A stretch of 58,777 nucleotides of DNA from Minisyncoccia bacterium (GTDB taxonomy: Bacteria; Patescibacteriota; Minisyncoccia; Phycocordibacterales; SBAW01), in the NCBI GenBank assembly GCA_049997855.1, contig JBEKSG010000006.1, positions 1-58,777 of the forward strand. The letters are read 5' to 3'. Shown here one piece after another: positions 5,401 through 58,777 of this stretch (position 1 is the first letter of the stretch; each line of letters begins with the position of its first letter). The position numbers and the translations under genes were made by a program. Below the pieces are notes generated by a model. It searched no databases, was not told the origin of the DNA, and was given only the letters and a program-made list of their open reading frames with translations.

Positions 5401-6183
5401 ATGAATAAGCGCCGCCTCATAGTCGCCAACTGGAAGATGTATATCAGCACTCCCGAGGAGGCAAAAAAGTTTGCCACCGCTTTGCGGCGCAAGGCGCGCG
5501 TGTTTGCCGGTGTCGACGCCGTACTCGCACCCTCGTTTACCCTTTTGCCGCTCGTGTCTCTCGCACTTAAAGATTCGTCGATAAAAACGAGCGCGCAGAG
5601 CATCTCGGTGTTTGAAACCGGCGCGCACACCGGCGAGGTTGGCGCAAAGATGGTTAAAAATTTTGGCGCAAGCTACAGCATTGTTGGCCACTCCGAGCGT
5701 CGCGCGCAGGGCGAAACCGACACAATGGTGTGCGCGCAGCTTGGTCATGCGGCAGTGGCAGGCATTACTCCTATTTTGTGCATCGGCGAGAGCGAGCGCG
5801 ATGCCGCAGGCGCCTACTTGGGTGTGGTGGCAGGACAGTTGCGCGAGGCGCTTAAAAGTTTTCCTGCCAGTAAAACAGGGGCTAAAACATCTGCGGTACC
5901 GAAACTGGTTATTGCCTACGAACCGGTGTGGACTATAGGCAAAAGCGCCAATGAGGCAATGAAGCCATCCGACGTACGCGAGATGAGCATTTTTATCAAA
6001 AAAACATTGGCCGAGCATTTTGAGCGCACGGCGGCCCTGCGCGTGCCGATACTCTATGGCGGCTCGGTGGAGCCGAGCAATGTGGCCGCGCTTATTGAAG
6101 AGGGCGACATCAACGGATTTTTGGTCGGGCACGCGAGCATTACCGTCGATTCGTTCGTAGAGATATTACAAGCATGCAAGTGA
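5401..6183 (+). CDS. tpiA: Triosephosphate isomerase
   Basis: 260-aa ORF; VANWKM, IVGHSERR, AYEPVWTIG, YGGSV motifs. Confidence 0.93.
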   Translation: MNKRRLIVANWKMYISTPEEAKKFATALRRKARVFAGVDAVLAPSFTLLPLVSLALKDSSIKTSAQSISVFETGAHTGEVGAKMVKNFGASYSIVGHSERRAQGETDTMVCAQLGHAAVAGITPILCIGESERDAAGAYLGVVAGQLREALKSFPASKTGAKTSAVPKLVIAYEPVWTIGKSANEAMKPSDVREMSIFIKKTLAEHFERTAALRVPILYGGSVEPSNVAALIEEGDINGFLVGHASITVDSFVEILQACK

Positions 6184-9246: not shown

Positions 9247-9972
9247 ATGGGAAAAGATACTGATACGATAATTATTTTTTGTGACGGAGCTGCCAAGGGC
9301 AATCCGGGCCCCGGCGGATGGGGCGCTTTGGTTGCCACGCATGCGCGTGTGCAAGAGCTCGGCGGCAAAGTTGCGCATACCACCAACAATCGCATGGAGC
9401 TCACGGCGGCGGCCGAGGCTCTTACCTATGCGGGCAAATTCTCCGGCAAACAGATTGTGATGCACACCGATTCCTCTTATGTAATCAACGGCATTACCAA
9501 GTGGGTACAGGGATGGAAAAAAAACGGCTGGAAAACAAAAGATAAAAGAGAAGTGTTAAACAAAAATTTGTGGATGCAGCTTAATGCCACCGTGCAAAAC
9601 ATTGCTGGTAGCATCACATGGCGTTATGTCGGCGGGCACGTGGGTGTTCTCGGCAACGAGCGCGTCGACGCTATTGCCTCCGATTTTGCGGAGGGTAAAA
9701 AAGTTAAACTCTATAACGGTCCACGCAGCAAGTATACAATCGACATAACAAACCTCGGGCGCGACGAGAGTTTACATAAAGAAAAATCGGCATCGCGAGA
9801 GCGTTCCAAGGCAAAAGCCTACTCCTATGTAAGTAAAGTCGGCGGGAAAATCGCCACGCACAAAACATGGGGCCAGTGCGAGGCGTGCGTCAAAGGCAAA
9901 GTGGCTCGCTATAAAAAGGCTCTCTCGTCGGAGGACGAAGCGTCCATCATTAAAGAGTTTTCTTCACGCTGA
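9247..9972 (+). CDS. rnhA: Ribonuclease HI with a C-terminal hybrid-binding-like domain
   Basis: RNase H core (FCDGAAKGNPGPGGWG, TNNRMEL, DSSYV, GNERVDAIA). The C-terminal about 50 aa (YSYVSKVGGKIATHKTWGQCEACVKG..ARYKKALSSEDEA) resemble an RNase H1-type HBD. Confidence 0.85.
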   Translation: MGKDTDTIIIFCDGAAKGNPGPGGWGALVATHARVQELGGKVAHTTNNRMELTAAAEALTYAGKFSGKQIVMHTDSSYVINGITKWVQGWKKNGWKTKDKREVLNKNLWMQLNATVQNIAGSITWRYVGGHVGVLGNERVDAIASDFAEGKKVKLYNGPRSKYTIDITNLGRDESLHKEKSASRERSKAKAYSYVSKVGGKIATHKTWGQCEACVKGKVARYKKALSSEDEASIIKEFSSR

Positions 9973-10006: not shown

Positions 10007-11482
10007 GTGAAAGTTGAGTACTCAGGCGGCGCTTTTTTGTACGTGTTGGCCGCCAGCTTGGCAGGTGGCGTTGCCTGTGCGCTCATTGTTACTATACCCA
10101 CCACCCTGCTTTTGGTGTGCGTAACGATTGCGCTTGCTCTCATGGTAGCAGGAGCTTTTGCGCGCACACGCGTGCTTTTGCTTATCGCAATCGCGCTTGT
10201 GGCATTCATGCTCGGTGTCGTGCGTGGAGATTTGTTTTTATATAAAGAGTCGCAAGAAAATGTTTCTGCATTTTTGGGCAAGGCAACGGTCGTTGGTACG
10301 ATTGTGAGCGACCCGGTGCAAAGTGGCGCGCACGTGCAAGCCGATGTGGCGGTGTCGTCGGTAAACGGCACTCCCGCACGCGGTACGCTCCTCGCATTTT
10401 TGTCGCCGTATGTAACTGCGGCTTACGGGCAGGAGGTGACGCTTGGCGGCACGCTCGAGGCTCCTGCGAGTTTTATCGGCGACAATGGCAACACGTTTGA
10501 TTACCCCAATTATTTGCGCGTACAGGGCGTCTCGATGTTGCTCATGCAAGCTCTGCTTGAGCAGGTCGCACCTGCAAAACTTTCGTTATATGGCGTGTTG
10601 TTTACCATCAAACACGTGTTTGAGGCATCAATTGCACGCACGCTGAGTGCGCCCACAGCGTCGCTCCTTGAAGGTGTTTTGCTTGGCGAACGCCGCGGGT
10701 TGCCGCAAGATATGACCGACGCGTTTGTCGCGGCGGGGCTCATACACATCGTGATACTCTCCGGCTACAGCATGTCGGTAGTGTCGGAGGGGATTTTACG
10801 AGGGCTCGGATTTTTGCCGCGCCGCTTTCAAATGCTGTGTGCCGCGCTTTGCATGATGCTGTTTGTGATCATGACCGGCGCCGCTCCCACCACCGTGCGC
10901 GCGTGCATGATGGCGCTCGTAGCGCTCGTGGCGCGCTATCTGCATCGCACCGCGCTTGCCCTCCGGAGCCTTGCTGCCGTCGCGGTGGCGATGGTGCTGT
11001 GGAATCCGCCGCTCATCCTCGGCGACGCATCATTTTTTACCAGCGTGCTCGCAACGTTTGGGCTCATCGTGTTTGCGCCGAGTATTGAAAAAATGTTGCG
11101 ATTGATACCGCAACGTTTTGAGATGCGCTCAATTATCACTTCTACCATTGCGGTGCAGATTTTTGCACTGCCCGCGCTTTTGTACTTTACGGGCAATCTC
11201 TCGTATCTCTCGGTACCGGCCAATCTTTTGGTGTTGCCGCTTTTGCCGTTAGTAATGATTGCCGGATTTGTGACCGGCATCTGCAGTTTTATCAACACGG
11301 CGCTCGCGTTTGTGCCTGCGCTCATTGTCACTTTGCTGTTGCAATGGATAGTGCTCGTCGCGCATACCGTGCAAACGTTGCCGTTTGGGTTTGCAACATT
11401 TGCCGCGTTCCCGCTCTGGCTTGCGTTGCTAATGTACGTGCCACTAACGGCATCTGCTGTGTATTTGTTAAAGCAGAAATAA
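10007..11482 (+). CDS. comEC: ComEC/Rec2-family competence membrane protein (no MBL domain)
   Basis: 491-aa polytopic ORF; GLIHIVILSGYSMSVV and MTGAAPTTVRA blocks typical of the Competence domain. Confidence 0.8.
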   Translation: MKVEYSGGAFLYVLAASLAGGVACALIVTIPTTLLLVCVTIALALMVAGAFARTRVLLLIAIALVAFMLGVVRGDLFLYKESQENVSAFLGKATVVGTIVSDPVQSGAHVQADVAVSSVNGTPARGTLLAFLSPYVTAAYGQEVTLGGTLEAPASFIGDNGNTFDYPNYLRVQGVSMLLMQALLEQVAPAKLSLYGVLFTIKHVFEASIARTLSAPTASLLEGVLLGERRGLPQDMTDAFVAAGLIHIVILSGYSMSVVSEGILRGLGFLPRRFQMLCAALCMMLFVIMTGAAPTTVRACMMALVALVARYLHRTALALRSLAAVAVAMVLWNPPLILGDASFFTSVLATFGLIVFAPSIEKMLRLIPQRFEMRSIITSTIAVQIFALPALLYFTGNLSYLSVPANLLVLPLLPLVMIAGFVTGICSFINTALAFVPALIVTLLLQWIVLVAHTVQTLPFGFATFAAFPLWLALLMYVPLTASAVYLLKQK

Positions 11483-11565
11483 AAAATAGTTTCTCCGGGT
11501 ACTCAATTTTCTTGCTAGAAAATTGCTCAGTCCTCGCGCCGTCGCGCTGCGGAGCCCCTGCAAAA

Positions 11566-12177
11566 CTATTTCTTTATTTCTGCAAAACGTTGTTCGATAA
11601 CGCCCCAATTAATATTTTTGAAAAACGCGTCGATATATTTGCCTTTGCCCTGGGCGCCGTAGTCGAGTAAAAATGCATGTTCCCACACGTCAAGCGCTAC
11701 AATAATCGGCAGCGTAGCAAAGTGTCCCTGGTGTTGCTCGCCGACAAACCCCATGTGGAACGCGTGCATCTCGGGATTGTAATAAAGGATTGACCACCCC
11801 GGCCCGCGCATCATGCCGGTTTGTCGCATGCGCGCTATTGCCGCATCGGCACTGCCCCAATGTTTTGTGAGTGCCGTTGCGAGCGGGCCGCTTGCGGTGA
11901 TCGGAGTCGAACCATCCTCAAATTGCGAAAAATAAAGTTCATGGAGCTTCATCCCGTCAAACTCAAACGAGTGTCGGCGGCGGAGCTCCGCTATCGCAAG
12001 TGCATTTTTCTCTGCATTCTTTAAAAGATCCTCAATAGCCGCACTAACGGCATTAAAGTTTTTTACATAGCCCTCATACAGGCCGATATGTTGCGTGACG
12101 CTCTCTTTGGAAATGCCGGCGAGCTCCGGCAACTCAAACTTTTTGATTTCGTAATCCATATGCGGTAAGTATAGCAA
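11566..12177 (-). CDS. sodA: Fe/Mn superoxide dismutase
   Basis: FELPEL N-terminus and DVWEHAFLLDY metal-binding motif. The start may be the internal ATG at 12159. Confidence 0.92.
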   Translation of the reverse strand: MLYLPHMDYEIKKFELPELAGISKESVTQHIGLYEGYVKNFNAVSAAIEDLLKNAEKNALAIAELRRRHSFEFDGMKLHELYFSQFEDGSTPITASGPLATALTKHWGSADAAIARMRQTGMMRGPGWSILYYNPEMHAFHMGFVGEQHQGHFATLPIIVALDVWEHAFLLDYGAQGKGKYIDAFFKNINWGVIEQRFAEIKK

Positions 12178-41401: not shown

Positions 41402-41776
41402 TGGTGGAGATGGCGCGAGTTGAACGCGCGTGCAATGAAGTGTCGCAGAGAGCTTCTACCAGGTGTAGGACATTTTAATTTTCTTAGGCTCTTATGTTTA
41501 AAATGAGCAAAATCATTTTGAGCCGCAGATTGCAAGTTTCGGCAAATGGTCGAATCAACCCCACTCGCTATATCCTGTTTTATAACATCCTACATCCGCG
41601 ATCAGGCCACGCGGAGAAGATGCGAAGTCCTTAGGCTAATGCGTAAGAGACCTCGTTCGCCGAGAAATACGGCGATGCAACTGACTTTGCAGTTATGGTT
41701 ACCGGATTTTTAAGAAGGTCCGGACTTCTACCTCGCACTCGGTGCAAAGGCTTCATTGTCTAGGCCCGGCATCCCC
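41402..41776 (-). ncRNA. ssrA: Transfer-messenger RNA (tmRNA)
   Basis: The 5' GGGGAUG pairs with the 3' CAUCUCC-ACCA (G3:U pair). T-arm GCGCG-UUCAACU-CGCGC. Tag reading frame GCA AAG UCA GUU GCA UCG CCG UAU UUC UCG GCG AAC GAG GUC UCU UAC GCA UUA GCC UAA (..SYALA*). Lies 4 nt downstream of smpB. Confidence 0.9.
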
Positions 41777-46724: not shown

Positions 46725-46796
46725 GGGCGCGTAGCTCAGCGGTAGAGCAGCCGTCTTATACACGGCCGGTCCCTGGTTCGAGCCCAGGCGCGCCCA
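46725..46796 (+). tRNA. tRNA-Ile with anticodon UAU
   Basis: Perfect cloverleaf: acceptor GGGCGCG/CGCGCCC, D stem GCTC/GAGC, anticodon stem GCCGT/ACGGC with loop CTTATAC, T arm CCTGG-TTCGAGC-CCAGG. No encoded CCA. Confidence 0.85.
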
Positions 46797-46804
46797 CAAA
46801 ACAA

Positions 46805-50293: not shown

Positions 50294-51898
50294 CTAACGG
50301 AGAGGTGCCAGAGCGGTCGAATGGAGCAACCTGCTAAGTTGTTGTCCGGGAAACTGGACCGAGGGTTCGAATCCCTCCCTCTCCGCAATAGGTAGGACAG
50401 GACTAGATATATCAAAATTATTTTGGGCTTCACGCAGTGAAGCCCATTGTGGTTGAGCCACGCCGCGCGCTTCGCGCGTATGTAAGGAAAGGTTGGAGCC
50501 GAAGATTTTTTGGAGGGAGAGTTTTTTGGAGGGGAGGTCGTTCGATTTTTCCGTTTCATTAAGTAATGAAGCGTCCTTTATGAAATCTCGCAGAGGTTGG
50601 AGCCAAAGCGTAGCGTCATGCTCCAGTCGGACGATCTGCTCCTCGGCCGACTTGCGCTCAGACATGAGCGCACGCCTCCGCTCAAGATAGGTGTCGCGGT
50701 CTATGTCCTGCTCGGAATAGAGGTCAACGAAGCGGCTCATCTTGCCGTCCAGTTGAGCAATTTTGGTTCGCAAGTCTTGCACGGCAGTCATAGCAACGGA
50801 TTCGGCTTTCTGCTCGTCTTCGTTAGCCAAACGATATAACTCTTGCGTCCAGTCCGTAGGCATAACGTAGAGCGAAAGCAGGTCGGAGAGTTGAGCACTC
50901 AATACCTCCTCGCGGATATAGGACTGCGAACAGACACCGCGTTTCTTGGTACAGCGATAGTAGACGTAGCGGTGGACGTTCCCGTTCTTCTGATGCTTCG
51001 TGATAACTTCTCCGGTTATCATCCCGCCGCACTCGCCGCAACGCATGATGCCGCACAAGGGCTGCGGCTCGTTCTTGGGCTTATGGCGTTGTCTGCCGCG
51101 CAACTCTAAAACGTCCTGCACTCTGTCGAAAACAGCTTTTGAAATGAGCGGAGTATGCACGCCTTTGTATATCTCTCCGGCATACTCAAAATGGCCGTAG
51201 TAGAAGGAGTTGGTGAGCATCTTCTTGATGCTGTCTTTCTTTAGGGACTTGTCGCCACTGCTGCCGGACTTCTTGATCTGCTTGGTTCTGATACCACGCT
51301 CGTACAGAAAAGCCGATACATCTTCAAAACGGGATTTGTTCTCGGCGTACAGCTCGAAGGCTGCTCGTATAGCCGGAGCTTTGCGGCGATCAACTTCAAC
51401 ACGCTTGGTACGCGGATTATTTATGTAGCCCAACGGAGCAAGCCCCGGATACTCTCCGCGTCTCGCTTTCTCGCGTTGTCCTCGTTTCGTGTTCGCGCTC
51501 AAATCGCGGATGTACTGGTTCGCCATACCTAACTCAACAGACATCATCAATACGTTATCGGCAGGCAGAAAACTGCGGTCGTGGGTTTGTATGTGCTGAA
51601 TGACGCTCTGCTGCAAAAGCCAGCTTATCTGTCCACCGTCTACGGGATTGCGTGCGAGGCGGTCTATCTTCCAACACACAATGCCCTGCGCCTCTCCCGC
51701 GATGATGTGCCGGATCATTTCGTTGAAAACGGGACGGCCCGGCTTCTTGGCTGACTGTTTCTCCACGAACTCGGATACGATCTCCAAACCCTCGCGCTTG
51801 GCGAGGGAGCGCAACTCGGAAAGCTGCGCGTCTATCGAGAGGACTTGCTTGTCCTCGACATCGGTAGATTTGCGGGCGTAGAGGAAGTAGGTAGACAT
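50294..51898 (-). CDS. Large serine recombinase (resolvase/invertase N-domain, recombinase domain, zinc ribbon with coiled coil)
   Basis: YARKSTDVED (catalytic Ser), DRLARN, and CGECGG...YYRC motifs. The last about 80 codons run through IR1-L and then antisense through tRNA-Ser, so the true C-terminus is uncertain. Confidence 0.88.
   Translation of the reverse strand: MSTYFLYARKSTDVEDKQVLSIDAQLSELRSLAKREGLEIVSEFVEKQSAKKPGRPVFNEMIRHIIAGEAQGIVCWKIDRLARNPVDGGQISWLLQQSVIQHIQTHDRSFLPADNVLMMSVELGMANQYIRDLSANTKRGQREKARRGEYPGLAPLGYINNPRTKRVEVDRRKAPAIRAAFELYAENKSRFEDVSAFLYERGIRTKQIKKSGSSGDKSLKKDSIKKMLTNSFYYGHFEYAGEIYKGVHTPLISKAVFDRVQDVLELRGRQRHKPKNEPQPLCGIMRCGECGGMITGEVITKHQKNGNVHRYVYYRCTKKRGVCSQSYIREEVLSAQLSDLLSLYVMPTDWTQELYRLANEDEQKAESVAMTAVQDLRTKIAQLDGKMSRFVDLYSEQDIDRDTYLERRRALMSERKSAEEQIVRLEHDATLWLQPLRDFIKDASLLNETEKSNDLPSKKLSLQKIFGSNLSLHTREARGVAQPQWASLREAQNNFDISSPVLPIAEREGFEPSVQFPGQQLSRLLHSTALAPLR
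50299..50385 (+). tRNA. tRNA-Ser with anticodon GCU
   Basis: Type II tRNA: acceptor GGAGAGG/CCTCTCC, D arm CCA-GAGCGGTCGAA-TGG, anticodon loop CTGCTAA, long variable arm GTCC..GGAC, T arm GAGGG-TTCGAAT-CCCTC. Confidence 0.9.
50384..50540 (+). repeat. Inverted repeat IR1, left copy
   Basis: 157/157 match to the reverse complement of 54456-54612. Contains GGGCTTCAC-gca-GTGAAGCCC and CGCGCG-ctt-CGCGCG hairpins. Confidence 0.95.
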
Positions 51899-51956
51899 AC
51901 GTCTATTATACCATAATAGGTAGTGTATAACAGAATGGCGAGCTATAATGTTTATA

Positions 51957-52163
51957 ATGAAAAGTGAAGCTCAAAAGCTAGGAGAAAACCTTAAACGCAT
52001 TAGGACGGAAAAGGGTATGTCACAAGGCGATATTGTACGAGAACTGGGTATGCCGAGGAGTTTCGTGAGTAGCATAGAAAATGGGCGGACTAATCCGACG
52101 CTTGCGACAATAGCAAAATTAGCAAAAGCGATAGGTGTATCAACTGATGAGTTGTTGAAATAA
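51957..52163 (+). CDS. XRE-family HTH protein (probable R-M controller, C protein)
   Basis: LKRIRTEKGMSQGDIVRELGMPRSFVSSIENGRTNPTLATIAKLAKAIG. Lies immediately upstream of the methyltransferase; an alternative ATG is at 51948. Confidence 0.8.
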   Translation: MKSEAQKLGENLKRIRTEKGMSQGDIVRELGMPRSFVSSIENGRTNPTLATIAKLAKAIGVSTDELLK

Positions 52164-52164
52164 T

Positions 52165-53253
52165 ATGAAAGATATTGATTTAGTCATGCCGCCAAAAGCA
52201 CTGCAAACAAATCTATTTGGAGACAAGATCAAGTCCCACAAGCTTCCAAAGACACAGTATTTGGGGAGTAAGGAGCGTTTAGTAAATTGGATATATGACA
52301 ATGCCCCTAAAGATATTGAGACCGTCTTAGATGCTTTTAGCGGCACATCCGTTGTCGGTTATATTTTTAAGTCGAAAGGCAAAAAAGTTATTGGGAACGA
52401 TTTTCTAAAATTCAATTTCCACATTGGTAAGGCAGTGATTGAAAACAACAATCAGACTCTTGATGAGGATGATCTATCAACTCTCTTTAGGAAAAATAAA
52501 CAAGCGCAGACTTTGATTGAAGATGTTTTTACTGGAGTATTTTTTGAACGTGAACAGGCACAATTTCTAGATAATTTTCGAGCAAATGTGAATTTGCTCC
52601 GAAATGAAATTAAGCAGTCTCTCGCTTTAGCAGTTATGAGCCGCGCACTGACTCGCAAAATTCTGCTAGGTCACTTCGCACATCTAAGTGCATTGAGATA
52701 TAGCAAAGACCCGTTGAGGATAAAAAGAAATCCAACAATTGCTCGACCCTTACAGGATTTATTCTTGGAATTGGTTGGTGAATACAACAATGCTGTTTTC
52801 GACAACGGCAAAAATAACAAATTTTATTGTGAGGACACAATACAACTTGTCTCAAAGCTGAAAGGGATTGATCTGGTATACTTCGATCCACCCTATTGTG
52901 GCTGCCATCCTGATTATCAGGCGTTCTATCACTTCTTGGAGACCTTCGTCGAATATTGGAAAGATAAAGAATTTATCAACGGCACAAAACAATATTTCCC
53001 TAAAAAAGAAAGTGGTTTTGTGCAAAAAACGGAGATTATTGACTCATTTGCAAAATTGTTCGAGGCCAGTGATCATATACCGTATTGGCTAATTTCATAT
53101 AACAGTAAAAGTTATCCGGAAAAGGATACAATGATTGAACTTATAAAAAAACATAAGCAGGTAAAAGTATATGAATACGAATATGAAAATCATTATGGTG
53201 GCAAGGGTTCGAGGAAAGGGACAAAAGAGTATCTTTTCTACTGTTTTAATTAA
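52165..53253 (+). CDS. N6-adenine DNA methyltransferase (D12/Dam-like class)
   Basis: YLGSK N-terminal motif, FSGTS AdoMet motif, and catalytic DPPY. Confidence 0.85.
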   Translation: MKDIDLVMPPKALQTNLFGDKIKSHKLPKTQYLGSKERLVNWIYDNAPKDIETVLDAFSGTSVVGYIFKSKGKKVIGNDFLKFNFHIGKAVIENNNQTLDEDDLSTLFRKNKQAQTLIEDVFTGVFFEREQAQFLDNFRANVNLLRNEIKQSLALAVMSRALTRKILLGHFAHLSALRYSKDPLRIKRNPTIARPLQDLFLELVGEYNNAVFDNGKNNKFYCEDTIQLVSKLKGIDLVYFDPPYCGCHPDYQAFYHFLETFVEYWKDKEFINGTKQYFPKKESGFVQKTEIIDSFAKLFEASDHIPYWLISYNSKSYPEKDTMIELIKKHKQVKVYEYEYENHYGGKGSRKGTKEYLFYCFN

Positions 53254-53259
53254 AAAATT

Positions 53260-54357
53260 ATGAATAAGTTCAAGCAACTGAAACAACTTTATCAAGACAA
53301 TAAATTTGATGTCTTGCTGAAAGACCCTGAGAGTGTCTATTGGCTCAAACTACGCTCAATCTCTCGAAAGGAATTGATGGTTGATTTTTGTATGGAGAAC
53401 GGAATTAGTTGTACAGGGATAAGAGGCGCGGCACTCTTTGAACATATCTACGATTCTAAGCCTGACGAGAAAGTTGTCGATAAGTTCATAGCACAAAAAT
53501 ATTCTGTTGAACGAGCAGCAAGAAAAGCGAATGAGACCAAACTTATCTCGGAGTTGTATAAAATGAAAGTGCTCGATTGGGGAGGACTTTACCAAAACAA
53601 TCTTGAGAGAACGATTGTCGATAATTACATAAAGAAAATTACTGATTTCGACCTTCTCAACGAAAAAATTGAAAAAGAAATCCACGCGAGCATGCGTGGA
53701 TACGTCCAGTCGTCGTGGTTTAATCACTGGACATCAATTTTGATAGAGGATATTGTCAAGGACAACAAAAAAGTCATTCCTACTGTTGGCTTGATTAAGA
53801 AAGTGGACTTCTTCATCTCAAACGTCCCCTTTGATCTGAAAGTCACATATTTCCCAGAAGGTTATATGTTGGCAAGACGTAAAACCTTAGGCCTGCCTAC
53901 TGAAATCAAACTCCTAAAAAGATTTTCGAAAGCTAAGGGTATCCGGTACGACAAAACTCAAAAGGACAAAGCTCTGATGTCGGAATTACTTACGCGTATC
54001 TCGGAAAGAACCGACATAGAATCCAAGAGATTTATTGAGGAATTTAAAGCGGCTAGGTGGAAAATAGTTGAAGATACCATTAAAGATAAGAAATCTCTCA
54101 TCCGGTGGCTTTACGAGGAACAGGGTGAACGTAGATTTGATGCCGCAAATCGACTTTTCTTAGTACTGATCGATAAGGAGAACATGGAGGATAGTTGGAA
54201 AATGAAAAGAAATATCGAGTTGTTGGGCGATGAAGTAAATGCTTATCTCGATAAATTCAATCCTAAGGACACATCGACCCTCGACATTGAATTTGATTGG
54301 ATGGATGGCAAAAAATATAATACTGTTTCTGACGCGATATTTATCGTCAAAAAATAA
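53260..54357 (+). CDS. Probable type II restriction endonuclease
   Basis: 365-aa ORF directly after the methyltransferase. Carries a PD-(D/E)XK-like signature VDFF...FDLKV. No other recognisable domain. Confidence 0.55.
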   Translation: MNKFKQLKQLYQDNKFDVLLKDPESVYWLKLRSISRKELMVDFCMENGISCTGIRGAALFEHIYDSKPDEKVVDKFIAQKYSVERAARKANETKLISELYKMKVLDWGGLYQNNLERTIVDNYIKKITDFDLLNEKIEKEIHASMRGYVQSSWFNHWTSILIEDIVKDNKKVIPTVGLIKKVDFFISNVPFDLKVTYFPEGYMLARRKTLGLPTEIKLLKRFSKAKGIRYDKTQKDKALMSELLTRISERTDIESKRFIEEFKAARWKIVEDTIKDKKSLIRWLYEEQGERRFDAANRLFLVLIDKENMEDSWKMKRNIELLGDEVNAYLDKFNPKDTSTLDIEFDWMDGKKYNTVSDAIFIVKK

Positions 54358-54455
54358 TCTGCATGGGAGTTTCGCCGATCTTCACGGCGAAAAAACAGAC
54401 TGCCTATAACACGCGCACGGGTGGTGTGGGGCAAGTGTTATATCAAAAACGTATT

Positions 54456-54612
54456 CGACCTCCCCTCCAAAAAACTCTCCCTCCAAAAAATCTTCGGCTC
54501 CAACCTTTCCTTACATACGCGCGAAGCGCGCGGCGTGGCTCAACCACAATGGGCTTCACTGCGTGAAGCCCAAAATAATTTTGATATATCTAGTCCTGTC
54601 CTACCTATTGCG
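54456..54612 (-). repeat. Inverted repeat IR1, right copy (duplicates the 3' end of the recombinase gene)
   Basis: Exact reverse complement of 50384-50540. This explains the track ORF 54421..54654. Confidence 0.95.
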
Positions 54613-54775
54613 CAGCTCTACTGCGTTCTTAGAACCCATTTTAGCAGAAAATGAGACTTCTAGGGTAGTCATTCGGGCGTGATCTACCCCTTCATTCACC
54701 CCTTCATTCGACCTACACCGGAATGAAGGGGTAGCTCCTCTCGATATTGGCTTCAACACTCGCTCTTTGCCATAT

Positions 54776-54934
54776 CCTCGCGAAAAAACTCAACCCCTAC
54801 TTCACTCCGCAACACCCCGTGTGTTGCTCCGTGAAGGACGGCCACGGAGTACCGTGTCCGTCCGCCCCCGTTCGAGTCCGGTGGCTCGGCCTTCTCCTTC
54901 CGTCCTGCTGTCTCTTTTTGCTCGTGTGGGGGGG
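54776..54934 (+). repeat. Inverted repeat IR2, left copy
   Basis: Matches the reverse complement of 58618-58777, with 2 substitutions and a G7/C8 homopolymer difference at the inner edge. Contains three consecutive hairpins and a GTTCGAGTCC T-loop-like motif. Confidence 0.9.
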
Positions 54935-55004: not shown

Positions 55005-55880
55005 TTGGATGTGTCTAGTGAACCAAAACCACGTCGTCAAAAGTTCGTTCGAGGTGAAGCCGACCCCCTCAGATTGACGTCCCGCGACACCGCAATTCTT
55101 TCCGATGTGGCCGAGTACCGCTTTTTGAATACGGAACAACTTCTGTCTTTGCACGAAGGGAGCCGCCGCAACATCGTTGAGCGATTGAGCCTTCTCTACC
55201 ATCACCACTTTCTTGATAGGCCAAAGGTGCAAAAAGCGGCAAACCTAGCGTCTGCCCATGTCGTCTATTCTCTCGACCGAAAAGGCGTTGATGTATTAGC
55301 CAAGGACGCGCAGGAGCGGCAAGGAATTTTGCGCCGCGTGCAGGAGGTTAAACACACGTCGCCCCTCATCGCTCACGCTTTGATGATCTCACAATTCCGC
55401 GTTTGCCTTACGCTCGCGCTCAAAAGTCGTCCGAGTGTAAAGCTCATACGCTGGACGCAGGGCAACGATCTAAAAACTCTGTTGCGGCATCGCGGCGAAA
55501 ATCCCGAACTCGTGCCGGATGCCTTTTTCATTCTAGATACGTCCGAGTTTAAGTACCCGTGTTTTCTCGAAGCGGATCGCGGGACGATGACGGAGGAGAG
55601 GTTTGTAAATAAGCTCCGGCTATACTGGCGGCACTACCGCGAGGATCGTTTCAACAAGACGCTCGGCATTTCCCATTTCCGCGTCCTCACCATTACCCCG
55701 AACGAAGCGCGGAGCGCGAACTTGTGCCGCGCCGCCAAAGAAGCCGACGACCGCAAGCAAGGCAGTGGCATGTTTCTATTTATGTCCGAGACAGCATACG
55801 GGACGACGAGGCCGGACGAGCTGTTGAAGGAGGCCTGGAAATGTCCGAAATTCGATACGATGCAGGGTATCATTCATTGA
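55005..55880 (+). CDS. Replication-relaxation family protein (wHTH plus PD-(D/E)XK-like core)
   Basis: 291-aa ORF; LTSRDTAILSDVAEYRFLNTEQL, PDAFFILD, and FLEADRGTM motifs. Confidence 0.65.
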   Translation: MDVSSEPKPRRQKFVRGEADPLRLTSRDTAILSDVAEYRFLNTEQLLSLHEGSRRNIVERLSLLYHHHFLDRPKVQKAANLASAHVVYSLDRKGVDVLAKDAQERQGILRRVQEVKHTSPLIAHALMISQFRVCLTLALKSRPSVKLIRWTQGNDLKTLLRHRGENPELVPDAFFILDTSEFKYPCFLEADRGTMTEERFVNKLRLYWRHYREDRFNKTLGISHFRVLTITPNEARSANLCRAAKEADDRKQGSGMFLFMSETAYGTTRPDELLKEAWKCPKFDTMQGIIH

Positions 55881-56022
55881 CGGCCGACTGGGGCACGAGA
55901 GAAGCCCTGAAAACTCGCTATCGCTCGCGTTCAGAACTAGGACAGTTCTGAAAAACATAAATATAGTCTATGTTTTTACTCGCATCCTTGGAACTGTAAA
56001 ACTACTAGCCTATACTGCGATT

Positions 56023-56871
56023 ATGAGTCATCTTGGAGATATACAGTATGCAGGCGTGGCCGGGATATCGAGAGATTGCGAAGACGCCGTTCTACGGTTC
56101 CTGCAATACGGGGATCGGATAACGAAGGTGCGAATCCTTTCCGCAAACGCAACTCATTGTTTGCTGCTTACCACTAATTCGGGCGATCTTGTTGCGATCA
56201 AAACTGGCTTCGCGTCCGGCTATAACGGCGAGGGGCCGCGGCGCTTTTCGTATGTGCTCGCGATTCTCGATGCCTATGAGATTGAGATAGAGGAGTACGA
56301 CGTGAAAGGGTCGCTCCTAACACGCGTTGATAATTCCGCACTAGAAAAGTCAGATCTTGATGTAATCAAGAATACGCGTCCGGTACGGGGTGCCCGTTGG
56401 CGCGATTACGTTTACCTTGAACACGAAGATCCAAAACAGTGGGATGCACTATGGCAAGAGTTTCCTCCTGCAATTCCGTTCGGTATCATCGACAGCAGGA
56501 TCATTGATCTCGCAATCTCGTTCTGGGAGAATCCAGACGATAAGATTTTTACAGGATACCGCCGTCTTGAAGATATCGTTCGAGAAAGGATTGGTAGCAA
56601 AGAACACGGCGCAGAATTGTTCTCTCGCGCTTTTTTAGGATCGCCCCCTCAGCTTGGATGGAAAGACATTCATAACGGGAGTGAACAGGCGGGTAGAGCG
56701 AATCTATTTAAAGATGCGTATCTTGCATACCGTAATCCTCGTGGGCATAGGGAGCCGAAGCAAGGCCATCAAGCCCGACAAAATCTTAGAGAATTTCTCC
56801 TTCTGAATCATCTCTATACTCTCGAAAAGGAGGCTATTCCGATGGAGGTTGCCGAAAGTAAAACTCTATAA
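56023..56871 (+). CDS. Two-domain protein with a C-terminal TIGR02391/Ymh-type domain
   Basis: The C-terminal pattern LFSRAF...GRANLFKDAYLAYRNPRGHRE...REFLLLNHLY matches my memory of the Ymh family. The N-domain is unknown. Confidence 0.55.
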   Translation: MSHLGDIQYAGVAGISRDCEDAVLRFLQYGDRITKVRILSANATHCLLLTTNSGDLVAIKTGFASGYNGEGPRRFSYVLAILDAYEIEIEEYDVKGSLLTRVDNSALEKSDLDVIKNTRPVRGARWRDYVYLEHEDPKQWDALWQEFPPAIPFGIIDSRIIDLAISFWENPDDKIFTGYRRLEDIVRERIGSKEHGAELFSRAFLGSPPQLGWKDIHNGSEQAGRANLFKDAYLAYRNPRGHREPKQGHQARQNLREFLLLNHLYTLEKEAIPMEVAESKTL

Positions 56872-56916
56872 GTTATCTGCTCTTCAACTTTTGCGAGAAA
56901 GGACTAAAGTGGTAAA

Positions 56917-57111
56917 ATGGCTAATATGAAACAGCAATCTAAGAAAACGAAGACGGCAAAAAAGCTTATAGACCTGTATGAGCAGTATCAGGTATTCAGA
57001 CGTGTTTCTGAAATGGCACCAAAAAGGAAACTACTCCCTTTTACGCTCGATCAGGAAATAGAGAGCATAAATCCCTACTATGTACGAAATGAAAACGTGA
57101 ACTATGGCTAA
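56917..57111 (+). CDS. Small basic hypothetical protein
   Basis: 64-aa ORF overlapping the next gene's start by 8 nt (translational coupling). Confidence 0.45.
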   Translation: MANMKQQSKKTKTAKKLIDLYEQYQVFRRVSEMAPKRKLLPFTLDQEIESINPYYVRNENVNYG

Positions 57112-58138
57112 GAATGAAGACGAAGTGAGAGAGCCGGAGGTCTTGCCTCTACCAGATTCGCAACAGCAACCCAAACAGGTGAGTACATTCGAGGAACCAT
57201 ACTTTATGAGTCTCGAAAGAGACAAGCAGCAAAGTAAAAGGGCTTTTGAAGACAGTAGAAAAAACGCGCGAGTAGAAAGAATAAAGGCGATACAGAATAT
57301 TAGGGGCGGATCTAAGATCGTCGTTTATTATTCGATTGGTACTTTGACCGCAAACGACGCAGAAATTCTTTTCGACCTCCTTCAGAGTGTTGGTAAACAG
57401 AAAAAACTTGATCTGTTTTTACTAAGCCCCGGTGGTTATGTTGACCCCGCTTTTAAAATGGCGAAGATGTGCCGTGACTTCGCTGAAGAAAAATTTGGAA
57501 TAATAATTCCGCACTACGCGAAAAGTGCGGCCACTCTCCTTTCTCTCGGAGGCGACGAACTGGTGATGGGATCTGCATCGGAAATCGGGCCGATAGATCC
57601 ACAAATTGAGATAATGGATGAATATGGTAGAAAATTTAATGTTTCAGCGAACTCTGTCGAGGATGCTCTAGAAGTCATCGAGGAGCACTCGGCTGGCGAT
57701 CCCATAAAGTCTTTGAAGTACATGCCGTTGATAGAAAAAATCAACTTGAACACTCTTGGCCAATATCGAAGGGCGTTGGATAGCTCTAAGCAATATGCGA
57801 AAGATTTATTAAAGACGGGGAAACTTCTCAAGAAGAGAGACGCGAAAACAATAGAATCAGTTGCGAATAAATTAGCAACTTATTATTTTTCGCATGCTTA
57901 TCCAATCAAAACCGATGTTGCGGCAAGGGAACTACATTTTAACGTCGTAGATGCAAGCGCGAATAAACCACTCTGGCAAGCTATGTGGCAGCTCCATAAG
58001 CTTTATGATGCGATGATAAAAGAATCACGCACCGACAAAACGATGATAACTACAATTTTTGAAGCGGAAGAGTTCAGCGTATCAATGACGAAATCTCTAG
58101 TACAAGAGCAAGAACAATATGAGCAAAGAAGAAAATAA
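57104..58138 (+). CDS. SDH-family ClpP-fold serine proteinase
   Basis: LDLFLLSPGGYVDPAFKM, YAKSAATLLSLGGDE, and IGPIDPQ motifs. Confidence 0.7.
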   Translation: MAKNEDEVREPEVLPLPDSQQQPKQVSTFEEPYFMSLERDKQQSKRAFEDSRKNARVERIKAIQNIRGGSKIVVYYSIGTLTANDAEILFDLLQSVGKQKKLDLFLLSPGGYVDPAFKMAKMCRDFAEEKFGIIIPHYAKSAATLLSLGGDELVMGSASEIGPIDPQIEIMDEYGRKFNVSANSVEDALEVIEEHSAGDPIKSLKYMPLIEKINLNTLGQYRRALDSSKQYAKDLLKTGKLLKKRDAKTIESVANKLATYYFSHAYPIKTDVAARELHFNVVDASANKPLWQAMWQLHKLYDAMIKESRTDKTMITTIFEAEEFSVSMTKSLVQEQEQYEQRRK

Positions 58139-58520
58139 AACTGAGCGGCCAATATTGCAGTTCTCTGTCCTATGCGATGGAATCGCCACTCCGAAGGAAA
58201 TGGGGAATAAGCCCGTTTTCATTGGCGTATTCAGTAGTTTATTAAGGCCGATGGCACTGCCTCAGTTTTTTATTGTTAATAGATGGATAAGTGGCCTCGG
58301 CGAGCATACGCAGATAATCAAAATACTTGATCCGGATTTGAAAGAAATAGCAAAAACCCAAGCCCAAAAGTTGGTTCTAACATCAAAGGTGGGTTCTGCC
58401 GATGTAGTTAATGCGTTTGTAAATCTAAATTTCCCTAAGGCGGGAGTATATTGGATAAAAATCGAACTTGATGAAAAAACCGCGATGTCGTATCCGCTTC
58501 CGGTTTTTGAAATGAAGTAA
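58119..58520 (+). CDS. Small hypothetical protein, translationally coupled to the protease gene
   Basis: 133-aa ORF overlapping the preceding gene by 20 nt. Beta-rich composition with no catalytic motif recognised. Confidence 0.5.
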   Translation: MSKEENKTERPILQFSVLCDGIATPKEMGNKPVFIGVFSSLLRPMALPQFFIVNRWISGLGEHTQIIKILDPDLKEIAKTQAQKLVLTSKVGSADVVNAFVNLNFPKAGVYWIKIELDEKTAMSYPLPVFEMK

Positions 58521-58617: not shown

Positions 58618-58777
58618 CCCCCCCCACACGAGCAAAAAGAGACAGTAGGACGGAAGGAGAAGGCCGAGCCACCGGACGCGAACGGGGGCGGACGGACACG
58701 GTACTCCGTGGCCGTCCTTCACGGAGCAACACACGGGGTGTTGCGGAGTGAAGTAGGGGTTGAGTTTTTTCGCGAGG
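58618..58777 (-). repeat. Inverted repeat IR2, right copy (truncated by the window end)
   Basis: Its reverse complement aligns base for base with 54776-54934, apart from 2 substitutions. Confidence 0.9.

Follow-up and report, generated by a model that had tools for sequence, protein, structure and literature searches.

Elements of the staphylococcal cassette chromosome (SCC) type have a conserved housekeeping gene as their target, inserting at its 3' end, and form composite arrays of modules between which the same short core is repeated; their cores are direct repeats and their terminal inverted repeats are short. Hin, Gin and Cin are small serine recombinases with a C-terminal helix-turn-helix (HTH) and depend on an enhancer and Fis; their segments commonly occur in both orientations, and P1 has its crossover sites at the outer edges of long inverted repeats. 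The yeast 2-micron plasmid has two unique segments and 599-bp identical inverted repeats containing the recombinase target, and the molecule flip-flops. Tn4451 and Tn5397 excise as circles, end in a direct GA dinucleotide and have neither long inverted repeats nor a tRNA target. The locus described here lies in a contig of 58 777 nt from a Minisyncoccia bacterium (JBEKSG010000006.1; the whole stretch is called the window), where the gene of a large serine recombinase (LSR) runs into tRNA-Ser(GCU) and its 3' end recurs, inverted, on the far side of a 3.9-kb interior. Canonical serine integrases need neither long arms nor accessory sites (PMC3783163).

The 157-bp inverted repeat enclosing this interior is read here, with a probability of about 0.55, as the two P' arms of a composite LSR island that has inserted at the 3' end (nt 72–76) of tRNA-Ser(GCU). 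The repeat marks a large and apparently undescribed family of Patescibacteria islands that carry a serine integrase and lie at tRNA 3' ends; no description of such an element architecture was found in the searchable literature, and no relatives were found in IMG/VR. The features of the window are collected in Table 1, and other loci and contigs are given L numbers.

Results

The inverted repeat begins within tRNA-Ser(GCU) and contains the end of the recombinase gene

An earlier note, made by reading the sequence, had proposed a perfect 157-bp inverted repeat whose left arm adjoins tRNA-Ser(GCU) and encodes the C-terminus of the recombinase, and each part of this description was confirmed. A repeat search and inspection of the sequence gave 157/157 complementary positions between the proximal arm (R) and the distal arm (R'); the full arms (50381–50540 and 54456–54615) measure 160 nt and are 99% complementary, with one mismatch. 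ARAGORN and Rfam agreed on the start of the tRNA (anticodon gct), Rfam ending it at 50385, and the first bases of the left arm are the last bases of the tRNA (..CTCTC-CG, followed by CAATAGG). The core at this junction (site 1), CGCAA, is the reverse complement of TTGCG at 54608–54612 and holds the candidate crossover dinucleotide.

The LSR contains Resolvase, Recombinase and Zn_ribbon_recom domains (Pfam). PF00239 covers residues 5–149 (E = 8.5e-21), which places the resolvase catalytic domain at the N-terminus, and PF07508 (residues 173–266) and PF13408 (residues 280–339) both match C-terminal to it. The nucleophile, S11 in the motif YARKSTD, is invariant in an alignment of 17 LSR sequences, and weak NCBIfam matches were to CcrB and CcrA. 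Homologues numbered 5178 at E <= 0.001, and the matches whose source was named were from Patescibacteria. The open reading frame (ORF) crosses the left arm, which encodes DLPSKKLSLQKIFGSNLSLHTREARGV...PIA, and then continues antisense into the tRNA, from which its last 29 aa derive. Homology to relatives stops near ..PIA, at the core, and many of the closest homologues terminate in G[FLIV]EP, the antisense translation of a tRNA T-arm. Exact-protein look-up found no record of the 534-aa product, and such look-ups of the LSR and of the presumed restriction enzyme gave no alternative junctions. In Ga0427918_0000070, the Joint Genome Institute (JGI) contig with this locus, the genes neighbouring the LSR ORF (L130:2787–4563, corresponding to window 50294–51898) are called and the ORF itself is not.

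The right copy of the repeat is in frame within a 77-aa ORF (54421–54654). This ORF and its counterparts stand in protein databases as 'hypothetical protein' (P0134–P0153) and are probably annotation artefacts of the repeat.

The repeat recurs across a family of tRNA-associated loci

Loci were assembled from exact protein look-up (2), species-representative genomes (80) and metagenomes (43); the first two groups and the window form an 83-locus set. The last ~110–170 bp of the LSR gene recurs inverted 1.5–10 kb upstream in 57 of the 83 loci, including that on the complete Kaiserbacteria chromosome OY969413.1 (L003), and the repeat is lacking in only eight loci having at least 4 kb of upstream sequence. 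The architecture is thus family-wide and not confined to the window. In carriers the proximal arm terminates at a tRNA 3' end, and at least 13 tRNA species are involved (Ser, Val, Arg, Leu, Glu, Trp, Tyr, Asn, Gln, Ile, Ala, Gly, Thr or suppressor-type).

A common core, TGGTG, is the reverse complement of the tRNA end C72-A73-CCA (CACCA), and metagenomic loci connect the same R end and TGGTG to eight or more different tRNA sequences. This variety of tRNAs, and a core of 3–6 nt that closes three junctions in relatives, bear out the proposal that recombination took place at the outer boundary of the repeat, where the tRNA ends. A crossover in the T-loop was hinted at by tails such as GFE-QNIN in close LSR variants and by a tRNA-Ser 3' fragment beside a repeated sequence in L003. 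It was rejected as the main junction, because LSRs that are 91% identical adjoin tRNAs whose T-stems differ and are internally compensated, and because nt 72–76 are always where the repeat ends.

The two arms of a locus resemble each other far more than arms of different loci do: the median identity of R and R' within a locus is 93% (at least 98% in 19 of 52 pairs), and that of R arms between loci is 57%. Judged from these sequences, R and R' co-evolve. In ~25 loci the one essential difference between R and R' is a conserved insertion of ~9–11 nt that R' carries at one fixed position, and apart from this insertion, which the window is missing, the arms differ by 0–3 bases in many loci. The repeat is reduced to 38 nt in a distant syntenic relative, L002. 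Chance is excluded as the source of the repeat because the 157-mer is perfect and the same architecture is found in 57 of 83 loci; its frequency, the co-evolution of the arms and the R' insertion were taken together to rule out chance, a fold-back introduced in assembly and the decay of a second recombinase gene, in keeping with the previous view of the repeat as recombinase-site DNA.

A second inverted repeat and three related junctions

R' is followed directly by a conserved segment termed D in all informative loci (those whose repeat reaches the core), where R is followed instead by antisense tRNA. The consensus of D in LSR-sense is a.ttTaTACgacca.gttcGAACtTtTTTcA. Both flanks contain GAAC. 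Counted from the repeat end, it stands at offset 15 in the tRNA arms of 21 of 36 loci and at offset 19 in the D arms of 22 of them. A motif for the zinc-ribbon domain lies 5 bp nearer the centre in attB than in attP half-sites (Rutherford et al., PMC3783163). A spacing difference of the kind that separates P-type from B-type half-sites is thus present here, and by analogy the 4-nt shift fits D as an element-borne P-type arm and the tRNA as a B-type arm.

D also opens a second inverted repeat. In the window 54776–54934 is the reverse complement of 58619–58777 (D') at 157 of 159 positions, where the match is cut by the window end, and contig L127 extends it by 20 bases. D and D' are 473 nt long, 100% identical and 373 nt apart in L003; in L035, L051, L057, L065, L078 and L082 they extend over at least 160–266 nt with 97–100% identity and enclose 3.3–5.4 kb. 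The 4.2-kb unit previously regarded as the whole element is therefore followed by a second repeat-bracketed module and is probably not an autonomous cassette. As read from these repeats, the layout is tRNA, module X (LSR, XRE-family protein and presumed restriction–modification (R-M) genes) and module Y, with an internal inverted attP-like site, running off the window end.

The junctions tRNA–R, R'–D and D'–chromosome are called sites 1, 2 and 3. Alignments showed that all three share TTGCG in the close relative L003, and that the outer D' end shares a 3–6-nt core with other junctions elsewhere (TGGTGA in L051, GCTC in L035), so that a short core identical between element and host is present in relatives (L003 sites 1 and 3; D' end against site 2 in L051 and L035). 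Past the D' core, L003, L051 and L057 have a hairpin and a T-run resembling the tRNA's own terminator. Sites 1 and 3 are in direct orientation because the inverted repeats alternate, and site 2 is inverted.

The cores at the two ends of X, as part of the repeat, are inverted relative to each other. Most lineages have cores (TGGTG, TTGAG) with no palindromic dinucleotide, and X alone can therefore invert but not excise conservatively; TTGCG holds GC and CG. The palindromic CG crossover suggested earlier consequently fails for most members and could at most apply to the tRNA-Ser lineage. A direct-orientation dinucleotide at both ends of X, as in Tn4451-like elements, was not found, the TTGCG core being a possible exception. 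A scheme in which X and Y are two circles fused at palindromic sites also failed, as the cores alternate in orientation and are mostly asymmetric.

The arms carry conserved nucleotide-level elements

At conserved amino acid columns the commonest codon is used by 85–92% of genes at LSR residues 448–471, compared with 50–64% in the body of the gene. The constrained stretch, DLPSKKxSLQKIFGSNL, is the inner end of the arm, and its codon usage argues that synonymous sites there are constrained. This inner end is also the sole part of the repeat kept in L002.

The 10-bp hairpin within the arm showed covariation over 41 loci, with 75 double-change cells compared with 33 in shuffles. RNAalifold run on the whole-arm alignment did not predict it, and pair counting for the specified structure supported it. 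It scores terminator-like on both strands and may replace the tRNA terminator displaced by integration. The hairpin just inside R', with its G-rich loop, was found in at least 33 of 45 loci, is 94.6% paired and has compensatory changes in five of five pairs. The layout of the 12-mers in D, two tandem and one inverted, is kept in L003, L099 and L056 with lineage-specific sequences. No Rfam family was found for the arms, the inner hairpin or the unusual non-tRNA flanks, and a protein search with the distal-arm peptide for full-length LSRs having a D-type tail returned only 20 small ORFs. Taken together, codon usage and covariation indicate that the arms of LSR islands are nucleotide-level elements beyond a copied coding sequence.

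Orientation of module X

The LSR 3' end adjoins the tRNA in nearly all loci of the genome set, and in about 90% or more of ~100 loci overall; flanks in the metagenome set comprised 26 tRNA, six D-type and two of a third, non-tRNA type. Inversion is the exception, and only a single unambiguously flipped locus, L121, was found. Here tRNA-Ala adjoins R' and the G-loop hairpin, and the LSR reads through R-TGGTG-D, with Y beyond. The outer parts of its arms have diverged, the tRNA-side arm being 47% identical to the LSR-attached arm at the protein level, and the orientation is therefore locked and not switching.

A second LSR, 35% identical, follows Y in L121 (8600–10202 of the oriented copy) within its own 98-nt perfect inverted repeat, which begins at a CACCA core and closes with TGGTG where the contig stops. 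Such an arrangement suggests that cassettes, each between inverted repeats, can be chained.

The X modules of L099 and L118 are 100% identical over 2771 nt, with D after the LSR-attached arm in L099 and a tRNA-like flank in L118. The comparison was no longer taken to prove exchange by site-specific recombination once R and R' of this element were seen to be identical over their outer 114 nt, which permits homologous recombination or a mis-join. L099 could be a circle, an inversion or a mis-join, and the other D-type contigs are short and equally ambiguous.

Three loci with close LSR relatives (87–91% identical), L006:3461–3520, L107 and L087:4297–4360, share a non-tRNA flank (GTGTGTCTCGGTCTAGAACTTTCC.. 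/ GTGAGGCTCGGTTGTGAACC..) that has a GAAC-like motif at tRNA-type spacing and no Rfam match; it may be a pseudo-attB or an unknown RNA gene. In L027 a 138-nt perfect repeat (9435–9572 and 11382–11519) spans the core and 27 nt of D, to CTCGAACTC, in both copies, and the LSR-side copy stands 57 nt away from tRNA-Leu and does not adjoin it, a variant junction.

Assembly of the locus

The JGI contig bearing the locus (258 kb) stops 121 nt beyond the right arm, inside D, and the following 4.2 kb (Y) is a separate contig that starts exactly at the core with a 127-nt overlap. The window therefore joins two contigs across a repeat, and the 157-nt repeat is longer than the overlap. The presence of the 3.9-kb interior and of Y is more secure than their orientation, which rests on the assembler's repeat resolution; the existence of the two arms and of the four junctions does not depend on it. 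Many contigs elsewhere (e.g. the k141 series) begin ~100–140 nt into D, about k-1, as exact D/D' repeats longer than k would be expected to produce.

Gene content of the modules and neighbouring loci

The XRE-family gene lies upstream of and divergent from the LSR gene in at least 35 loci, all without the methyltransferase and 365-aa genes of the window (tblastn). These two genes were found in the window alone and were absent from the 82 other loci. On this distribution the XRE protein is a conserved partner that belongs to the LSR module, in which it may act as a regulator or an accessory factor. The presumed R-M pair is low-GC cargo that was acquired recently and that no other locus shares. 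The smallest X modules hold the LSR alone (cargo 124–175 nt).

An R-M cassette under an XRE controller had been proposed for the interior; the adenine methyltransferase is sustained by PF02086, and the XRE protein as an R-M controller (type II C protein) was rejected on its co-occurrence with the LSR in loci lacking the pair. The 365-aa protein, which the earlier note had read as a PD-(D/E)XK-like nuclease, gave no match in Pfam, NCBIfam or PDB. GC content falls to 0.33–0.43 only in the stretch from XRE to the 365-aa gene, which agrees with the AT-rich interior described before; the LSR gene, with a flank-like GC of 0.51–0.55, does not fit that description.

Module Y of the window was also assembled as separate contigs (L127 and L128), and its genes are defence-like. 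The contents of Y vary, other loci carrying GmrSD, an Mrr-helicase fusion, an M23 peptidase, a multicopper oxidase and others, and no replication gene was conserved across the Y modules examined.

Upstream of the island the window contains tRNA-Ile (anticodon TAT, 46725–46797) and a transfer-messenger RNA (41402–41776, tag AKSVASPYFSANEVSYALA), and the order tRNA-Ile(TAT)-RecG-tRNA-Ser is syntenic with L002. In L003 a palindromic hairpin stands next to a tRNA-Glu, and after it come the tRNA-Glu 3' end once more, inverted, and a ~100-nt sequence (11743–11979), of which a 94%-identical inverted copy (5496–5657) stands beside a tRNA-Ser 3' fragment at the far end of the island; these look like scars of T-loop-type recombination by another element. 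A group I intron (L082:17314–17552) and a LOOT RNA (L087:10702–10820), both at the Rfam gathering threshold, lie near other loci and are unrelated.

Table 1. Positions of the features of the LSR island and its surroundings in the window.
Feature	Position	Strand	Description
tRNA-Ser(GCU)	50299..50386	+	Putative B-type arm of attL-like site 1; ARAGORN, Rfam
GAAC of tRNA T-loop	50365–50368		Offset 15 (0-based) from repeat end, LSR-sense; statistics over 36 loci
Core of site 1	50384..50388		CGCAA on + strand; tRNA nt 72–73 plus 3 nt
Arm R (proximal)	50384..50540	-	Last 52 LSR codons; putative P'-type att arm; nucleotide-level elements
10-bp hairpin in arm R	50424..50446		Encodes WASLREAQ; twin in R' at 54550–54572
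Inner end of arm R	50506..50543		Two direct TTTTTTGGAGGG repeats (CCTCCAAAAAA in LSR-sense) and TCTTCGGCTC; twin at 54456–54490
LSR	51898..50294	-	534 aa; Pfam, homologues, C-terminal alignment
XRE-family HTH protein	51948..52163	+	Divergent from LSR; Pfam
Low-GC cargo of module X	52165..54357	+	D12-class methyltransferase and 365-aa protein
D12-class N6-adenine methyltransferase	52165–53253	+	PF02086
365-aa protein	53260–54357	+	Presumed restriction enzyme; no family match
Conserved hairpin just inside R'	54405..54442		Stem TATAACAC/GTGTTATA; near-invariant G-rich 22-nt loop GCGCACGGGTGGTGTGGGGCAA
Arm R' (distal)	54456..54612	+	Perfect inverted copy of R
Arm D	54613..54934	+	Putative P-type att arm; also first arm of second inverted repeat
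T-arm mimic GAAC in D	54632–54635		Offset 19 (0-based) from repeat end
Operator-like 12-mers in D	54686..54732		ACCCCTTCATTC twice in tandem and inverted GAATGAAGGGGT
Module Y cargo	55005..58520	+	Replic_Relax, Hypoth_Ymh, 64-aa ORF, SDH-type ClpP-like protease, DUF6941
Arm D'	58619..58777	-	Inverted copy of D; cut by window end

Discussion

The composite island proposed here builds on the anatomy of the locus and its conservation in the family, on arms that co-evolve and are constrained at the nucleotide level, on the core common to the sites, on the 4-nt shift of GAAC and on the single flipped locus. Site 1 (50384) would be attL-like; the LSR gene crosses its P' arm there and reaches the crossover core. 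Site 2 (54612/54613), composed of the second P' arm, the same core and D, would be an intact inverted attP-like site retained within the island. Site 3 would be attR-like and direct with site 1; it is predicted ~160 nt beyond the window end, where it should read ..CTCTCCGCAA and then chromosomal flank. If the LSR acts at the core, recombination of sites 1 and 3 would generate a circle with two inverted attP-like sites between X and Y, which could re-integrate through either of them. X or Y might be flipped by the LSR or by homologous recombination with the junctions, and the LSR frame up to the core, unchanged. Such a circle would account for both orientations and for the co-evolution of the arms, and the arm duplication may serve in flipping and as a dual attP. 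The long arms would be complex att arms with accessory-site repeats, whose hairpins probably also terminate tRNA read-through and cargo transcripts.

Several observations weigh against this interpretation. Two equivalent attP-like sites predict that both orientations are common, and ~90% or more of loci have the LSR directed towards the tRNA. For the locus of the window neither an empty attB nor a circular junction nor support from reads was obtained, site 3 lies outside the window, and the contigs reading LSR-R-core-D (L097–L099 and L103) may be mis-joins and are no evidence for circles. The P' arm has no recognizable copy of GAAC, the GAAC shift is 4 nt where the published shift is 5, and no recombination directionality factor was identified. 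As canonical integrases need no long arms (PMC3783163), part of the function of the arms may be unrelated to recombination. The orientation bias and the absent read-level support leave moderate confidence in a composite island.

The strongest alternative, although unlikely, is a dedicated inversion switch, in which the LSR, or RecA acting on identical arms, flips X (and Y) as phase variation and so alters the transcription entering the module from the tRNA or D, together with the tail of the LSR. The sites bracketing X are inverted, with a common core and identical P' arms, and inversion is their sole conservative outcome; the maintained identity of the arms, hairpins that are terminator-like on both strands and the flipped locus L121 point the same way. 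A switch is nevertheless hard to reconcile with the strong bias of the LSR towards the tRNA among ~100 loci, with the divergence that has locked L121, and with a coding sequence that a flip leaves unchanged up to the core. No outward promoter was identified, and the 534-aa enzyme, with its recombinase and zinc ribbon domains, is not a small serine recombinase with a C-terminal HTH of the Hin/Gin/Cin kind. Serine integrases are reported to recombine only attP with attB, or attL with attR in the presence of a directionality factor (PMC3783163).

Less probable still is the second reading of the earlier note, an autonomous 4.2-kb cassette with giant terminal inverted repeats and a 2-bp crossover beside T-arm-like sequences. 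The cassette would here sit between the tRNA and the end of a resident element, Y, with Y-type modules as non-autonomous passengers, and would give an X-only circle with the R–R' junction ..cctattgCGcaatagg.. Modules are indeed chained via the same core, as in L121 (tRNA, X, Y and a second LSR module with its 98-nt repeat), minimal X modules consist of the LSR, and the palindromic GC and CG in the tRNA-Ser core TTGCG would remove polarity. However, X was never seen without D beside R', no tRNA–D junction without X was present among the loci examined, and in most lineages the inverted, non-palindromic end cores of X allow neither conservative excision nor insertion.

It is very improbable that the right arm goes back to a second recombinase gene, left by an older element and since decayed. 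The strongly diverged tRNA-side arm of L121 and the 38 nt shared by L002 are what decay might leave, but the 93% likeness of arms within loci compared with 57% between them is not; the distal arm, moreover, always stops at the same inner boundary, always lies beside the conserved hairpin and D, often with the ~10-nt insertion in common, and is followed by no further remnants of an LSR gene. Least likely of all is a fold-back or repeat-induced assembly artefact: although the window joins two JGI contigs across a repeat longer than their overlap, the same architecture is found in dozens of independent assemblies, including the complete chromosomes L003, L056 and L078, and also where the arms differ enough for unambiguous assembly.

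More tentatively, composite islands of this kind may represent a new class of mobile element, a chain of cassettes each held in long co-evolving inverted att arms and joined via a 5-nt tRNA-end core, whose integrase flips, exchanges and captures cassettes. If so, the class would be an integron-like or 2-micron-like system under an LSR with accessory-site-dependent complex att arms. Serine integrases are valued for ~50-bp sites thought to need no accessory DNA. This abundant LSR family appears to depart from that pattern, in that the universal 3' end of tRNA is targeted, part of an att arm lies in the integrase's own gene under dual coding and nucleotide constraint, the partner arm mimics the tRNA T-arm, and an inverted attP-like site is kept inside the island. 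If the interpretation is correct, these islands would give bearers of tiny genomes a new way to organize and reshuffle their defence cargo; they would also put the rule that half-site spacing sets directionality to a natural test, and be a source of tRNA-end-specific integrases. The paired exact repeats explain the assembly breaks at these loci and the small distal-arm 'hypothetical proteins'.

Comparison with known systems

LSRs of phages and integrative conjugative elements (ICEs), such as phiC31, Bxb1, A118/LI and SPbeta SprA, have the same Resolvase-Recombinase-zinc ribbon order and a short core at their hybrid junctions, and as here a motif lies ~4–5 bp further from the centre in the element-borne arm (PMC3783163). 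Unlike them, the Patescibacteria islands target the very 3' end of tRNA genes, their integrase ORF traverses its own P' arm into the tRNA, their arms extend to 150–470 bp with constrained hairpins and repeat motifs, and the integrated island appears to keep an intact inverted attP-like site and two cargo modules in inverted arms.

The likeness to SCCmec and other SCC elements (CcrAB/CcrC) lies in the weak NCBIfam matches of the LSR to CcrB and CcrA. In contrast to SCC, the cores of the islands alternate in orientation, the arms are long and near-identical, and the target is a tRNA gene rather than rlmH. In Hin, Gin and Cin systems and the P1 C segment (0.6-kb inverted repeats) a recombinase gene and a segment likewise lie between inverted repeats, but the island enzyme is an LSR and a single orientation dominates. 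Tn4451 and Tn5397 also have an LSR (TnpX, TndX) at the end of the mobile element. The excised island circle, which is a prediction only, would share the topology of the yeast 2-micron plasmid, although FLP is a tyrosine recombinase of a eukaryotic plasmid and Y of the islands has no conserved replication function.

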